Shown piece by piece: positions 736-38,995 of a DNA stretch of 50,143 nucleotides; within the stretch, counting starts at the first letter, position 1; the number at the start of each line of letters is the position of its first letter. The stretch lies in the sequence record OV696612; one strand, written 5' to 3'. The notes under the pieces were generated by a model. It saw only the letters and a program-made list of their open reading frames with translations, ran no database searches and was not told the DNA's origin. A program made the translations under genes and the position numbers. This stretch comes from Escherichia phage Perceval.

Positions 736-4416
<3,681 letters not shown>

Positions 4417-4436
<20 letters not shown>

Positions 4437-5748
4437 TCTCCCGCATATTGCCAGCATGGCCTTTAATGAGCCGCTGATGCTTGAACCCGCCTATGCGCGG
4501 GTTTTCTTTTGTGCGCTTGCAGGCCAGCTTGGGATCAGCCGCCTGACGGATGCGGTGTCCGGCGACAGCCTGACTGCCCAGGAGGCACTCGCGACGCTGG
4601 CATTATCCGGTGATGATGACGGACCACGACAGGCCCGGAGTTATCAGGTCATGAACGGCATCGCCGTGCTGCCGGTGTCCGGCACGCTGGTCAGCCGGAC
4701 GCGGGCGCTGCAGCCGTACTCGGGGATGACCGGTTACAACGGCATTATCGCCCGTCTGCAACAGGCTGCCAGCGACCCGATGGTGGACGGCATTCTGCTC
4801 GATATGGACACGCCAGGCGGAATGGTGGCGGGGGCATTTGACTGCGCTGACATCATCGCCCGTGTGCGTGACATAAAACCGGTATGGGCGCTGGCCAACG
4901 ACATGAACTGCAGTGCAGGTCAGCTGCTTGCCAGTGCCGCCTCCCGGCGTCTGGTCACGCAGACCGCCCGGACAGGCTCCATCGGCGTCATGATGGCTCA
5001 CAGTAATTACGGTGCTGTCCTGGAGAAACAGGGTGTGGAAATCACGCTGATTTACAGCGGCAGCCATAAGGTGGATGGCAATCCCTACAGCCATCTTCCG
5101 GATGACGTCCGGGAGACACTGCAGTCCCGGATGGACGCAACCCGCCAGATGTTTGCGCAGAAGGTGTCGGCATATACCGGCCTGTCTGTGCAGGCTGTGC
5201 TGGATACCGAGGCTGCAGTGTACAGCGGTCAGGAGGCCATTGATGCCGGACTGGCTGATGAACTTGTTAACAGCAGCGATGCGATCACCGTCATGCGTGA
5301 TGCACTGGATGCACGTAAATCCCGTCTCTCAGGAGGGCGAATGACCAAAGAGACTCAATCAACAACTGTTTCAGCCACTGCTTCGCAGGCTGACATCACC
5401 ACCGTGGAGCCTGCGAAGGAGGGCGAAAACGCCAGCGCGGCGCAGCCGGATGTGAACGCACAGATCACCGCAGCGGTTGCGGCAGAAAACAGCCGCATTA
5501 TGGGGATCCTCAACTGTGAGGAGGCTCACGGACGCGAAGAACAGGCGCGCGTTCTGGCAGAAACCCCCGGAATGACCGTGGAAACGGCCCGCCGCATTCT
5601 GGCCGCAGCACCACAGAGTGCACAGGCGCGCAGTGACACTGCGCTGGATCGTCTGATGCAGGGTGCACCGGCACCGCTGGCTGCAGGTAACCTGGCATCT
5701 GATACCAATAAAGAATTACTTAATACACCTGAAGCTTTACCGGTATAA
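4417..5748 (+). CDS. C: prohead protease / head maturation protein C (ClpP/S49-like)
   Basis: GTG at 4417 preceded by AGGAGG; product MTAELRNLPHIASMAFNEPLMLEPAYARVFF... matches lambda gpC; the ORF-track start at 4270 is an upstream in-frame alternative. Confidence 0.9.
5131..5748 (+). CDS. nu3: scaffolding protein Nu3 (in-frame internal start within C)
   Basis: In-frame ATG at 5131 preceded by GGAG; product MDATRQMFAQKVSAYTGLSVQAVLDTEAAVYSGQEAIDAGLADELVN...; lambda encodes Nu3 as the C-terminal in-frame part of C. Confidence 0.7.
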   Translation: MDATRQMFAQKVSAYTGLSVQAVLDTEAAVYSGQEAIDAGLADELVNSSDAITVMRDALDARKSRLSGGRMTKETQSTTVSATASQADITTVEPAKEGENASAAQPDVNAQITAAVAAENSRIMGILNCEEAHGREEQARVLAETPGMTVETARRILAAAPQSAQARSDTALDRLMQGAPAPLAAGNLASDTNKELLNTPEALPV

Positions 5749-33308: not shown

Positions 33309-33815
33309 TCATTTTAATCTATCAAGGAGTGACTCTCTTTCCTTCTTCTCTGATTCTCTTCGGTTTAATAACGCTTTAAACTCTTGAAGCTCAACCATTA
33401 TTTTATGAACGAATACACTGGTATAGAGAGAAATAAAGAGTAATCCACCTGAAATTTTTAAGACCCTGAAGAGTAGGGCTTGATCATTTGTGCTTGCTAT
33501 TAACCCCAAGATTACAAACAAAGTTGAAAATACATAGAAAGCTAATAATAAAACCAATTTCAGTCTCTTGGATTTGACTATTGGCACTAATCGCCTAACC
33601 TCACTAGGGGTTAAAGACGAGTGGTCATTGGCCTCATTTGCCTTAAAAATGGCTTGTATACAATATGATAATGGCAATTGCATGAGTCCAACCACAGCCC
33701 ACGGAGCAGTTAGGACAACACCCGGTGTAATATAGCCCAATGCTGACTTGAACAAAAAGTAACCAGCAAAATAGAAGACCAACATACCAATAAGGTGGAT
33801 GATGTTCGATTTCAT
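33309..33815 (-). CDS. four-helix membrane protein in the rexB position (candidate exclusion/abortive-infection component)
   Basis: 168 aa; four predicted TM helices then a charged C-terminal tail; strong RBS GGAGG; AT-rich; second gene of a two-gene cassette directly downstream of cI. Confidence 0.7.
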   Translation of the reverse strand: MKSNIIHLIGMLVFYFAGYFLFKSALGYITPGVVLTAPWAVVGLMQLPLSYCIQAIFKANEANDHSSLTPSEVRRLVPIVKSKRLKLVLLLAFYVFSTLFVILGLIASTNDQALLFRVLKISGGLLFISLYTSVFVHKIMVELQEFKALLNRRESEKKERESLLDRLK

Positions 33816-33836
33816 TATCGCCCTCCTTTTGGTAGG

Positions 33837-34859
33837 TTATTTTGCAACCAATTCTCCGGCATCAAGTTTTGAGAACAGCCACTTATGCATTTTTAAGAAT
33901 AAATCATTTTCATCAATAATGCCATTGTTATATTCAACGCTAATTTTTCCGGATAATTTTATCTCTTTTCCCGTTATTTCCCCACCGCCTTGAAGTTTGA
34001 TGCTAATATCATCCTCATCTAGATGTCGTAGTGAGGTAGCAATACTGTCTATAACAGCTTGACCGCTATCATTTGTTTTTCTGAAGTATGTAATCTCGAG
34101 GCTTACTTGTAAATTGGCCTCATCTAATGAATCTTTAATGTTTATATCATTTGCCCAGTTATCGCCAAAAAATGCTTTTAGTAGCGCACCTCCTTTCCCT
34201 ATTGGGCGGTATTTTATTGTCTTCACCGAACCATTTGAAAAGGAGGGTGTTTGGTTCTCTGAATTTTTAACTTCTGAAGTAATGGGTAATCCACCAATTT
34301 TTATGCTCTTGGCTGGTGCTTTCTCCATTTTTTTCATCGTTTCTTCGGATGGCTTATCTTGAAGCATTAACACAGATTCTTTTTCATCTGTGAATGTATT
34401 AATTAGCCAATTCAAATGCGCCTCAAGCTCCCTTGCTCGAAGCGATGTGGATTGAACGATCATGACATGGTTGTTTAGTACACCAAAATATAAAATTGAA
34501 TCTACAAACTCTCTTTTTTTGTCACTACGTTTATCTCCATCAATAATTATATCATTAGACGTGATGGAGTTAATGTCATAAAATTTAACATTATCACTAA
34601 GCTCTAATAGAGACTGGCTTTTGTCTTTTTCAAATAAAACCAGTTGCCCAAAAAGTATAGTTTTGTATGTGTCGCTTTTATTTAAGAAACGATACCCCGA
34701 ATTTTCATCTGAAGGTGTTATTTTTTCTTGTCTACTAAGTACTTTTTCTGCAACGCCGCCCTCACCTATAATACTAAGTAGTATGTTTTGTAATGATGAT
34801 TTGCTGTGTGGGATTACTGCTTTTTTATAATGAACGACTTTTTGTCTGTTATCTTTCAT
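33837..34859 (-). CDS. 340-aa soluble protein in the rexA position (candidate exclusion/abortive-infection component)
   Basis: AT-rich ORF immediately downstream of cI on the same strand, followed 21 bp later by the membrane-protein gene; no recognisable motif. Confidence 0.7.
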   Translation of the reverse strand: MKDNRQKVVHYKKAVIPHSKSSLQNILLSIIGEGGVAEKVLSRQEKITPSDENSGYRFLNKSDTYKTILFGQLVLFEKDKSQSLLELSDNVKFYDINSITSNDIIIDGDKRSDKKREFVDSILYFGVLNNHVMIVQSTSLRARELEAHLNWLINTFTDEKESVLMLQDKPSEETMKKMEKAPAKSIKIGGLPITSEVKNSENQTPSFSNGSVKTIKYRPIGKGGALLKAFFGDNWANDINIKDSLDEANLQVSLEITYFRKTNDSGQAVIDSIATSLRHLDEDDISIKLQGGGEITGKEIKLSGKISVEYNNGIIDENDLFLKMHKWLFSKLDAGELVAK

Positions 34860-34916
34860 TGCTATAGTCCAACTAGTATTGAATAAATAAACACAGTAAA
34901 GACATAAAAATTTCTT

Positions 34917-34946
34917 ATAGCTACCGATAACGTAATCGGTAGCTAT
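34917..34946 (-). promoter_or_regulatory. 12-bp perfect inverted repeat (ATAGCTACCGAT-N6-ATCGGTAGCTAT) between cI and the downstream cassette
   Basis: Perfect 12-bp arms with 6-nt spacer; on the minus-strand RNA followed by AAGAAAUUUUUAUG. Confidence 0.45.
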
Positions 34947-34981
34947 TACAAATCAACCAAAGGTAATTCTTTACATACTAC

Positions 34982-35674
34982 CTACCCATGCTTCCTGTAG
35001 GTCTGCGGCATGCTCCCAATAACTTTCCCGAAGATAAACACCCGGTTCATCTCGTCTTTCTCAATTGGGTCCCACGGCGAGTAGCTCTTGTTATCAGAGA
35101 TAACCAGTAGCTTATCCTTCATCATTTGCAGGCGCTTTACATGGGCTGTGTCGTCGTACAGAAACGCATAGATACCATCACCGTCGAAAGATTTAACCGT
35201 GATATCAACGAATAGAAGATCACCAGGTTCAATCGTTCCTGACATGCTGTCACCGCGTACGTTAATGATGCGGATATTTTCTGCCTTCCTACCATCGAAC
35301 ATGTGACGAGCATCGTCAAACGAGTACTCAACCGAGCGTAGAACTTCTACAAACTCACGGTTGATGACTCCCGGCCCGGCACTCACTTCTATATCAAGAA
35401 CGTCAATCTTGAAGTATTTGGGATGGTTGGCAGTAGGCTTCCCTAATTGTTGACCGTCATTTCTCATCGGGCCTATGCCTGATGAGAGCCACTCTGTTCG
35501 AACACCCAATGCATTAGCTATTTCAACAATTTTTGTTGAGCCGCGCGCGTTGCCGCTTGTCAGTCTCCAGATTGTGGGTTGAGCTACGCCAGACGCCTTT
35601 GCAAGAGCGCCTTGAGACATTCCAGATTGTTCCATCGCTAGGTTTAAGCGATCAGCAAGAGTTTCTTTTTTCAT
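34982..35674 (-). CDS. cI: CI-like repressor (N-terminal HTH, C-terminal S24 LexA-type peptidase domain)
   Basis: ATG at 35674; MKKETLADRLNLAMEQSGMSQGALAKASGVAQPTIWRL... HTH; C-terminal GDSM and VKRL Ser/Lys motifs; not lambda immunity. Confidence 0.85.
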   Translation of the reverse strand: MKKETLADRLNLAMEQSGMSQGALAKASGVAQPTIWRLTSGNARGSTKIVEIANALGVRTEWLSSGIGPMRNDGQQLGKPTANHPKYFKIDVLDIEVSAGPGVINREFVEVLRSVEYSFDDARHMFDGRKAENIRIINVRGDSMSGTIEPGDLLFVDITVKSFDGDGIYAFLYDDTAHVKRLQMMKDKLLVISDNKSYSPWDPIEKDEMNRVFIFGKVIGSMPQTYRKHG

Positions 35675-35679
35675 AAGTT

Positions 35680-35784
35680 TTAATTTATACGCTTGCGTAT
35701 TGATGGTCAAAACACGTTTTGCTATTGTTATGATTAATACGCATTGCTATTATTTATTCATTGTAATACCAATAGGAATTAATA
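35680..35784 (+). promoter_or_regulatory. divergent pRM/pR-type promoter-operator region
   Basis: Palindrome ATACGC-TT-GCGTAT, repeated TTGCTATTG motifs, and candidate pR TTGTTA-17-TATTAT upstream of cro. Confidence 0.5.
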
Positions 35785-38595: not shown

Positions 38596-38662
38596 TGAAA
38601 CAGGTGAGTTGAGTTCAAACTGTAGTACAATTCTCTCCAGTTTGAACAGGAAAGAATATGCT

Positions 38663-38995
38663 ATGAACCCTTATATTTATCTTGGTGGTGCAATACTTGC
38701 AGAGGTCATTGGTACAACCTTAATGAAGTTTTCAGAAGGTTTTACACGGTTATGGCCATCTGTTGGTACAATTATTTGTTATTGTGCATCATTCTGGTTA
38801 TTAGCTCAGACGCTGGCTTATATACCTACAGGGATTGCTTATGCTATCTGGTCAGGAGTCGGTATTGTCCTGATTAGCTTACTATCATGGGGATTTTTCG
38901 GCCAACGGTTGGACCTGCCAGCCATTATAGGCATGATGTTGATTTGTGCCGGTGTGTTGGTTATTAATTTATTGTCACGAAGCACACCACATTAA
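38663..38995 (+). CDS. emrE: small multidrug resistance (SMR) efflux transporter EmrE
   Basis: ATG at 38663; 110 aa MNPYIYLGGAILAEVIGTTLMKFSEGFTRLWPSVGTIICYCASFWLLAQTLAYIPTGIAYAIWSGVGIV... matches E. coli EmrE including catalytic Glu14; same position as emrE in DLP12. Confidence 0.9.
   Translation: MNPYIYLGGAILAEVIGTTLMKFSEGFTRLWPSVGTIICYCASFWLLAQTLAYIPTGIAYAIWSGVGIVLISLLSWGFFGQRLDLPAIIGMMLICAGVLVINLLSRSTPH

Follow-up and report, generated by a model that had tools for sequence, protein, structure and literature searches.

A two-gene cassette in the rex slot of prophage Perceval, a probable relative of the RexAB phage-exclusion system with divergent sequence

Two adjacent genes, here called A and B, follow the CI-type repressor gene in prophage Perceval of Escherichia coli LF82, and most likely encode a relative of the well-known RexAB phage-exclusion system that has diverged in sequence. 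By analogy with known Rex-type pairs, their products probably act as a sensor and a membrane effector in abortive infection. The initial annotation had described the genes as a candidate undescribed exclusion or abortive-infection module. Exclusion or abortive infection is still the best reading of the pair, on the same analogy, while its kind, the Rex-like systems, is already known. Sucellos SclAB and RexABpp, which resemble lambda RexAB in structure alone, have both been validated, and the A homologue of Acinetobacter phage phi1_092021 is annotated as 'DefenseFinder protein'; for these reasons A and B are regarded as a diverged representative of a type already known, and the suggestion of a previously undescribed kind of system is not supported. 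As a candidate for phage defence the pair is a good one, though it has precedents.

The cassette and its limits

The stretch of DNA analyzed, hereafter the window (50,143 nucleotides, record OV696612), is prophage Perceval of LF82, and matches NC_011993 at 100% identity. Both open reading frames are present at the coordinates initially annotated, on the minus strand. Gene A (LF82_153 / PERCE_43, WP_000654526; 33837-34859) encodes a soluble protein of 340 aa, a putative cytoplasmic sensor with a predicted RexA/RdgC-type fold. Gene B (LF82_152 / PERCE_42, WP_000841195; 33309-33815) encodes a protein of 168 aa, predicted to cross the inner membrane four times, and a putative channel or pore effector. 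Upstream of A, on the same strand, is the gene of a CI-type repressor (34982-35710, or 34982-35674 with the RefSeq start), and the HTH_3 and Peptidase_S24 domains of the product agree with the earlier assignment. The strong ribosome-binding site reported for B, GGAGG, can be read on the minus strand at 33822-33826, 6 nt before the ATG; a weak match alone (TTGGAC) is found upstream of the ATG of A.

Nine nt past the stop codon of B, a sequence scan located an intrinsic-terminator-like hairpin on the minus strand (33273-33300), in which the GC-rich stem-loop CCCGGC-CGTCGT-GCCGGG is followed by the T-run TTTTCTTTTG. Further 3', on the same strand, a PL-like sigma-70 promoter (TTGATA-17-TATTAT, 33107-33135), predicted from a consensus scan and from gene order, would head the kil-gam-bet-exo operon. 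Gene order, terminator and PL-like promoter all reproduce the lambda cI-rexA-rexB-tImm architecture, the likeness on which the initial annotation was built.

The limits of the cassette are set by comparison with the near-identical phage 4A7. In blastn alignments the two DNAs are 99.7% identical up to 33300 and 99.5% identical from 34982 on, and unrelated in between, where 4A7 carries a different gene pair. The swapped cargo cassette hence spans 1,681 bp (33301-34981), beginning immediately past the stop codon of cI and ending where the terminator stem starts, and the terminator-like hairpin, being included in the 4A7 identity, is part of the shared phage backbone at the tImm position. The GC content is 0.33-0.40 over the A-B pair vs. 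0.50-0.54 in the flanks. The AT-richness of the pair is thus confirmed, and its nature of horizontally swapped cargo in a hotspot is supported.

Transcription in the lysogen

RNA levels were drawn from published LF82 RNA-seq data, expressed as log2(fpkm+5) in five conditions (Misson et al. 2023, S1 Table). Both genes are transcribed in the lysogen, as the initial annotation had it, while the neighbouring lytic genes are silent. Values range from 8.4 to 10.4 for B, from 4.2 to 9.6 for A and from 6.2 to 8.1 for cI; kil and gam have values of 2.3-3.4, on the floor or close to it, and cro has values of 2.3-3.1. In LB, B RNA is 81-fold over the prophage background. B RNA is more abundant than A RNA in every condition, and A RNA can exceed cI RNA.

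A 12-bp perfect hairpin (ATAGCTACCGAT-TACGTT-ATCGGTAGCTAT; 34917-34946, minus strand) lies in the cI-A intergenic region, with TTTTT found 6 nt further on. Its RNA fold has a z of -3.4, and none of 200 shuffled sequences folds equally well. Judging from sequence and folding, the hairpin is a possible attenuator of cI read-through. The pair is probably transcribed both by read-through from cI, attenuated at this hairpin, and from promoters of the cassette's own, which would explain why B RNA exceeds A RNA, and A RNA sometimes cI RNA. A promoter scan found 13 sites inside the cassette, 9.2 +/- 3.1 being expected, and no internal promoter can therefore be named from the sequence.

Family size, synteny and prophage slots

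The A family comprises 787 clusters at 50% identity, found in prophages of gamma- and beta-proteobacteria, and has no Pfam family; the cluster members looked up are all named 'hypothetical protein'. A gene encoding a four-TM protein of 150-210 aa lies directly 3' of A, on the same strand, in 101 of the 102 loci featuring an intact A, the only exception being a locus cut by IS1. The gap between the two genes varies from -41 to +25 nt. The pairing persists even where identity falls to 31% in A and to about 15-20% in B, and the divergences of the two proteins correlate across loci (rho 0.80). The size of the family, the strict synteny and the detection of both transcripts show that A and B are not chance ORFs. 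The family includes a Vibrionaceae member and a Klebsiella/Salmonella clade, to which LF82 A is 28% identical. In an Enterovibrio locus, examined as a possible integron cassette, the 127-nt repeats fold unlike attC sites.

In other prophages the pair is located after other S24 repressors, in the Q-holin slot, convergent with Q, or amid tail genes, a distribution over several slots denoting moron behaviour. The same distribution weighs against the hypothesis that the pair mainly serves the lysis-lysogeny switch of the prophage itself, with no action on other phages, much as lambda RexA stabilises the lytic state. Lambda RexA, a DNA-binding protein, biases the bistable switch with no need of RexB, and Perceval A adjoins cI on the same strand. 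Yet in about 20 of 53 non-redundant prophage loci the pair is far from any repressor and convergent with Q, others being amid tail genes; the membrane partner, needless for a switch modulator, is kept in all loci but the one interrupted by IS1, and phage 4A7 manages without the pair. A role confined to the switch is accordingly unlikely.

Predicted structure of the two proteins

The predicted model of A has a pLDDT of 73, residues 190-290 being ill-defined, and finds its top structural match in RexA. [quoted passage not shown] A matched zero Pfam families at E<=1, and RexA was absent among the Pfam families matched (E<=10) by 48 scanned family members. The RexA and RexB models of Pfam and PADLOC found no match in A, in B or in the members of the family. 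Neither A nor B had matches identifying a family in PADLOC, RexA and RexB models included, in NCBIfam or among PDB sequences. Three successively deeper A-family profiles, aligned by hhalign to RexA profiles, gave probabilities of 0.1-0.4%. As positive controls, lambda RexA was matched at 1e-97, and lambda RexB matched its own model at 8.5e-92.

The model of B (AF2, pLDDT 85) consists of four long helices (residues 2-26, 37-62, 70-107 and 112-167), and the hydropathy profile has four hydrophobic segments, both in agreement with the four TM helices originally proposed. The TM2-TM3 loop and the C-terminal tail are rich in K and R, suggesting an N-in/C-in topology. The loop, predicted to be cytoplasmic, is basic and strongly conserved, with the motif L-[ST]-x-x-E-x-R-R-L, and the C-terminal helix is long and charged. 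B belongs to PHROG 16807, a family of unknown function, and matched neither Pfam nor the PADLOC RexB model; the hhalign comparison of the B and RexB families gave a probability of 0.9% (E 0.059). When the B model was searched by Foldseek against BFVD, a Sbash protein of 165 aa, the length of gp31, ranked second, and was the best viral structural match outside the family of B. The match is weak (prob 0.98, E 0.11, TM 0.48), and four-helix bundles match easily; lambda RexB was absent from the top 50 BFVD matches. A similarity of B to EmrE/SMR proteins, also weak (E about 1), was taken as hydrophobic-helix noise.

B might alternatively block DNA entry or alter the envelope, in the manner of Sie, Imm or SieB proteins or of other lysogenic conversion functions, with A as an accessory and no abortive infection. 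Many prophage membrane morons do block injection, B is very highly expressed in all conditions, and no recognisable effector domain emerged in either protein from the Pfam, PADLOC, NCBIfam and PHROG searches. The predicted RexA-type fold of A and the strict pairing, in contrast, point to a sensor and an effector working together as in the validated Rex-like pairs, and Sie proteins are not known to need a cytoplasmic partner of 340 aa. Exclusion of this type is considered improbable.

Relation to known systems

Lambda RexAB shares with A/B the order cI-rexA-rexB-terminator-PL. RexA and RexB (PF15969 and PF15968) have no detectable sequence or profile similarity to A and B, which are longer by 61 and 24 aa, respectively. 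B carries an extra cytoplasmic C-terminal helix of roughly 30 residues, and the central-loop motif of lambda RexB is RxxxKxKxYGY, as opposed to L-[ST]xxExRRL in B.

Closer in size are the pairs gp30/gp31 of Sbash and gp44/gp43 of the Gordonia phage CarolAnn, formed, as A/B, by a soluble protein (337-372 aa) and a four-TM protein of about 165 aa. These are likewise expressed in the lysogen, and the two genes are both necessary and sufficient for defence. The layout of Sbash gp31, four TM helices and a conserved central cytoplasmic loop, is that of B; the loop of gp31 is essential, as substitutions there abolish defence. The two phages differ from Perceval because actinobacterial and of high GC content, and the Sbash pair resides away from the repressor. 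No sequence similarity was found by hhalign between the A/B family and Sbash gp30/gp31. The Sbash pair, though validated as Rex-like, also escapes the Pfam and PADLOC Rex models; since these proteins fail the same sequence tests, the negative results obtained with A and B are uninformative, and do not argue against Rex kinship.

Sucellos (SclA/SclB) is a validated two-gene defence system, found as cassette 68 of the V. cholerae chromosomal integron. It is RexAB-like in structure and missed by Pfam models, requires both genes, and has homologues chiefly in proteobacterial prophages; a model of SclB shows a TM pore, and the cassette has its own promoter (bioRxiv 10.1101/2024.07.02.601686). The name is in use in the defence-system annotation of phages in a 2026 preprint. 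All these descriptors fit the A/B family, the comparison being one of descriptions. Were A/B homologous to SclA/SclB, LF82 A would rank among the distant members, since its identity even to the Klebsiella/Salmonella clade reaches only 28%.

RexABpp (PP_5643/PP_5644), from prophage P1 of P. putida, is also a validated Rex-like pair. RexApp matches RexA by HHpred at 98% probability, and two extra genes separate RexABpp from the repressor (Sci Rep 2026, PMC12894663). The A family, by comparison, yielded no signal in profile searches, and Perceval A/B are found next to cI. A single scan of a genome collection, based on a Pseudomonas-first alignment, returned no locus of A/B from P. putida or V. 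cholerae, and tblastn of the Klebsiella/Salmonella clade vs. phages revealed no link to Sucellos or RexABpp.

It is possible, though rather doubtful, that the A/B family makes up a separate Rex-type lineage, perhaps the largest, differing at the sequence level from lambda RexAB, Sucellos and RexABpp, with an A-B interface and a trigger of its own. The interface would then be formed by the conserved L-[ST]xxExRRL cytoplasmic loop of B and by its C-terminal helix.

Two further systems were rejected. Kiwa is a two-gene defence system combining the four-TM protein KwaA and the soluble DNA-binding protein KwaB (DUF4868), of about 315 aa. A has no DUF4868 in Pfam, the gene order is reversed, the membrane gene coming first in Kiwa, and the top structural match of A is RexA. 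RdgC was discarded because A/B are not of the RdgC sequence family, and do not constitute a stand-alone gene lacking a membrane partner.

Proposed mechanism

On the model of the known Rex-type pairs, B would form a closed oligomeric channel within the inner membrane and outnumber A, which would be a cytoplasmic dimer. After superinfection, A would bind DNA, or a nucleoprotein or protein signal made by the phage; validated Rex-like pairs act after early gene expression. Once activated, A may engage the conserved cytoplasmic TM2-TM3 loop of B, its C-terminal helix, or both. B would open, membrane potential and ATP would fall, and the infection would abort because the infected cell stops growing or dies.

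Only five Rex-like systems are counted as described in the P. putida study, and the effector is the membrane protein in four of these, as in the Sucellos model; in phage Butters the effector is the RexA-like protein, not the membrane protein (PMC12894663). The roles of A and B could therefore be reversed: as in Butters gp30/31, A would be a toxic effector, sequestered by B at the membrane until infection. A constant excess of B RNA over A RNA suits a sequestering antidote. The prevalence of membrane effectors, and the highly conserved architecture of B with its predicted pore-like features, make this arrangement quite unlikely. An addiction or toxin-antitoxin-like module, which would stabilise the prophage and take no part in phage defence, is least probable, and very much so: a membrane toxin accompanied by a soluble regulator recalls the arrangement of some TA modules, and the cassette is mobile between prophages, but A and B have no similarity to TA families in Pfam, NCBIfam and PADLOC, disruptions are tolerated (IS1 in SfIV, IS3 in strain T309.Ta3), and the fold evidence points to Rex.

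Distribution and relevance of the family

Assignment of A/B to the Rex kind implies that Rex-type systems missed by sequence tools can occupy the canonical rex slot of lambdoid prophages. The family is large, unnamed and mostly prophage-borne. Should it prove a separate Rex-type lineage, its diversity would make comparative work tractable on a 70-year-old question, how Rex sensors detect infection and gate their partner in the membrane. If the pair is active, its many natural variants would serve to map the sensor-effector interface, and the host range of phages used in therapy against the strains carrying it would be affected. The hosts of clinical relevance include AIEC LF82, O157:H7 (in Stx2a phages), Shigella (in SfIV), and Klebsiella and Acinetobacter (in prophages). 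Among these, LF82 is a convenient test bed, because both expression data and prophage-deletion tools exist.

The cI-distal slot and its cargo

The genes for the soluble 340-aa protein A (33837-34859, minus strand; LF82_153, WP_000654526) and the four-TM 168-aa protein B (33309-33815, minus strand; LF82_152, WP_000841195) lie where the initial annotation had placed them, and probably form a divergent Rex-type pair, not a new kind of system. Over the queried region the window is 100% identical to the chromosome of E. coli LF82, where this DNA resides in a lambdoid prophage integrated beside icd, named Perceval by Misson et al. 2023 (PMC9928086). The strong RBS attributed to B is present, GGAGG being located six bases 5' of the ATG; A has a weak Shine-Dalgarno match only. 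The same-strand gene upstream of A encodes a CI-type repressor (HTH and S24-peptidase), a GC-rich hairpin with a T-run begins nine bases past the B stop codon, and a PL-like promoter beyond it heads the kil-gam-bet-exo operon. The order cI, soluble gene, four-TM gene, terminator, PL is that of lambda, as had been proposed up to the terminator, and the pair is indeed richer in AT than its surroundings (GC 0.33-0.40 vs. 0.50-0.54 in both flanks).

Up to 33300 the window and phage 4A7 agree at 99.7% identity, and from 34982 onward at 99.5%, the DNA in between being unrelated. The cassette therefore extends from 34981, the base after the cI stop codon, to 33301, the start of the terminator stem, and the terminator is part of the phage backbone. 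The finding of unrelated cargo between the same junctions bears out the view of this slot as a hotspot. The 4A7 cargo (NC_049946, 34043-35543) consists of genes for a hypothetical protein of 353 aa and an ASCH-domain protein of 125 aa, possibly a further defence pair not yet characterised. A search of 5,426 complete E. coli genomes gave 749 with partial matches to the query, mainly in the flanks. The entire cassette is present in only 42 of them, always at identity of at least 99%; in about 700 genomes the slot flanks are matched, and the A/B cassette is not carried.

Two further features of the early regions were observed. An N-like antiterminator ORF is absent from the interval 32830-33300, between the PL-like promoter (33135-33107) and kil, and an N gene is not listed there in the RefSeq annotations of either LF82 or 4A7, which suggests that early-left transcription in the Perceval phage group proceeds without a lambda-type N. 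In the early-right region, emrE (SMR multidrug efflux) and a ybcK-type recombinase gene follow ren (38609-38995 and downstream), within another AT-rich moron block (GC 0.31-0.40); induction of emrE in DMEM was noted by Misson et al. 2023 (PMC9928086).

Predicted structures of A and B

Neither A nor B gave significant hits in Pfam, PADLOC or NCBIfam, or matches in a PDB sequence search; they correspond to PHROGs families 3482 and 16807, respectively, both without known function. Three A-family profiles (up to 197 sequences, Neff 6.1) were compared by hhalign to RexA profiles including relatives at 23-30% identity, and every probability was <1%; the B family vs. the RexB family scored 0.9%. By sequence, A and B fall outside the narrow families PF15969 and PF15968. 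The validated Rex-like pair Sbash gp30/31, used as control, was likewise matched by no Pfam or PADLOC Rex model, and gave no hhalign signal against the same RexA and RexB profiles; negative results of this type therefore do not tell A/B apart from accepted Rex-like systems.

An AlphaFold2 model of A, obtained with 48 homologues as input (pLDDT 73, pTM 0.69; residues 1-88, 121-180 and 290-335 confident), found lambda RexA (PDB 8twq) as best PDB match by two methods, one being Foldseek (E 2.4e-3, probability 0.94). The model features an N-terminal seven-strand sheet with flanking helices, a central alpha/beta region, and a long, confident C-terminal helix, a layout which agrees with the split globular domain and dimerisation domain of RexA. 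A is thus predicted to adopt a RexA-type fold. The early impression that the proteins do not resemble RexA/RexB holds for sequences and profiles, and fails for the modelled structure of A.

The model of B (pLDDT 85) has four long helices (2-26, 37-62, 70-107 and 112-167), in agreement with the four TM helices expected, and a cytoplasmic location of both termini (N-in/C-in) is indicated by the K/R-rich TM2-TM3 loop and the charged C-tail. In BFVD, the SfIV homologue of B, truncated by IS1, ranks first; the second, weak match (probability 0.98, E 0.11, TM 0.48) is a 165-aa Sbash protein, the same length as the product of Sbash gene 31. In a validated defence pair, Sbash gp31 serves as the RexB-like effector, and substitutions in its central cytoplasmic loop abolish defence; it is in this same loop, between TM2 and TM3, that conservation peaks in the B family (L-[ST]-x-x-E-x-R-R-L). 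The RexB central loop motif is different, and lambda RexB is missing among the top 50 BFVD matches of B. The likeness of modelled B to RexB-like effectors is suggestive only.

Relation to known Rex-like systems

[quoted passage not shown] A sixth, Sucellos (SclA/SclB), resides in the V. cholerae chromosomal integron; it is RexAB-like in structure, unmatched by Pfam models, requires both genes for defence, has SclB modelled as a pore, a cassette with its own promoter, and homologues found preferentially in prophages (bioRxiv 10.1101/2024.07.02.601686). The name Sucellos also appears in the defence-system annotation of phage genomes in a 2026 preprint. All these descriptors fit the A/B family, the comparison being one of published descriptions; A/B may belong to the Sucellos or RexABpp family, or be a further lineage. 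One A homologue, in Acinetobacter phage phi1_092021, is labelled 'DefenseFinder protein'. Prophage-borne pairs of a RexA-fold soluble protein and a four-TM partner, invisible to sequence tools, are in either case a known and validated kind of system. A Rex-like system in the rex slot will not surprise the specialist, and is of moderate interest; the A/B family, which is large and has no name, occurs in pathogens, and tools for experiments in LF82 are already available.

Expression in the lysogen

RNA levels, as log2(fpkm+5) in five conditions, were taken from S1 Table of Misson et al. 2023 (PMC9928086). B RNA measured 9.66 / 8.44 in LB overnight, 9.1-9.3 and 10.2-10.4 in DMEM at 1 h and 6 h, 9.5-9.6 and 9.0 in macrophages at 1 h and 6 h; the corresponding values for A were 5.19 / 4.15, 7.4-7.8 and 9.6, 6.9 and 6.4-6.5. 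cI RNA varied from 6.2 to 8.1, and neighbouring lytic genes stayed near 2.32, the floor value (kil and gam 2.3-3.4, cro 2.3-3.1). A and B are real genes, both expressed in the lysogen as anticipated; B ('transmembrane protein') is listed as a moron 81-fold over the prophage background (PMC9928086).

B RNA is above A RNA in every condition, and in DMEM at 6 h the level of A RNA is about 2.5 log2 units higher than that of cI RNA. Read-through from cI alone therefore does not account for the transcripts, and cassette-internal promoters, or differential RNA stability, must contribute. An internal promoter could not be named from the sequence, 13 promoter-like sites being found vs. 9.2 +/- 3.1 expected in shuffles. 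The cI-A intergenic region contains a hairpin (34917-34946, minus strand) with 12 perfectly paired bp and a 6-nt loop, followed after 6 nt by TTTTT (fold z-score -3.4; 0/200 shuffles fold as well). It belongs to the swapped cargo, not to the backbone, and may attenuate cI read-through or mark a cassette junction.

Pairing, spread and proposed function

The collection of homologues comprises 80 prophage loci from IMG/VR, 26 loci in bacterial genomes and 3 phage genomes. A is intact in 102 loci, and in 101 of these a 150-210-aa protein with the same two-plus-two hydrophobic pattern is encoded directly after it (gaps of -41 to +25 nt); the sole exception is SfIV, where the partner is truncated by IS1. 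Pairing is kept even where identity has dropped to 31% (A) and about 15-20% (B), and the divergences of the two are correlated (Spearman rho 0.80, 81 distinct pairs). A and B are one unit, and their pairing is near-obligate. When 1.84 billion cluster representatives were screened with a profile, 787 clusters at E<=1e-3 were assigned to the A family, 583 of them at E<=1e-10. The hosts are gamma- and beta-proteobacteria, including Escherichia, Klebsiella, Salmonella, Serratia, Xenorhabdus, Pantoea, Pseudomonas, Acinetobacter, Aeromonas, Marinobacter, Enterovibrio, Methylomonas, Dechloromonas and Aromatoleum.

Flanking genes of non-redundant prophage loci were surveyed by Pfam scan. An S24/HTH repressor gene is immediately upstream, the pair occupying the rex slot, in 11-14 of 54 loci (phi1_092021 is an example outside Perceval); antiterminator Q is the convergent downstream neighbour in 20 of 53, the pair lying in the Q-holin moron slot (SfIV; Stx2a phages, next to the stx region). 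Other pairs are found among tail or virion genes, and bacterial genomic loci have the same prophage neighbours. Where placed convergently with its neighbours, the pair must have its own promoter. A strictly paired cassette that moves from one prophage moron hotspot to another typically marks a defence or exclusion system.

The A/B pair is a strong candidate for an exclusion module, as had been suggested; the claim that the system is undescribed gives way to that of a divergent Rex-type pair of known kind. By analogy, A would be a dimer in the cytoplasm that senses a signal (DNA, nucleoprotein or protein) from the superinfecting phage, and would contact the cytoplasmic loop or tail of B; B oligomers would form a channel, the opening of which would collapse membrane potential and ATP and abort infection. 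The system may be kept silent by a surplus of B relative to A, in line with the sensitivity to stoichiometry described for lambda RexAB and RexABpp (PMC12894663). A role restricted to the prophage's own switch is unlikely, the pair having Q, tail or virion genes as neighbours at other loci; exclusion by blocking injection is equally so. A reversal of roles, as in Butters, is slightly less probable still, and an addiction module is very improbable.

Variant loci

In Stx2a phage 1447 the A/B homologues (3992-5555) lie between antiterminator Q and a DNA methylase gene, and in Stx2a-converting O157:H7 phages a tRNA cluster and stx2AB come after the methylase gene. The pair is convergent with Q in Stx2a-converting phages, and this candidate defence pair thus shares a moron region with toxin genes. 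Natural disruptions and variants of the cassette were found at four loci (L003, H11, L021 and L006). The B homologue of SfIV (L003, 3501-4324) is cut by IS1 to 108 aa, the cassette of E. coli T309.Ta3 (H11) is split by an IS3 element, A is shortened to 208 aa in one IMG/VR copy, and one B variant (28 member sequences) has a C-terminal extension to 207 aa.

In Enterovibrio norvegicus FF-33, three copies of a 127-nt repeat (2232-2358, 3273-3399 and 5522-5648; 66-79% identity to the reference copy) are located about 90-280 nt upstream of successive plus-strand ORFs, the last copy preceding the A/B homologue pair. The repeats show no integron attC-like folding, and may be a promoter or 5' UTR module reused in a cargo array.
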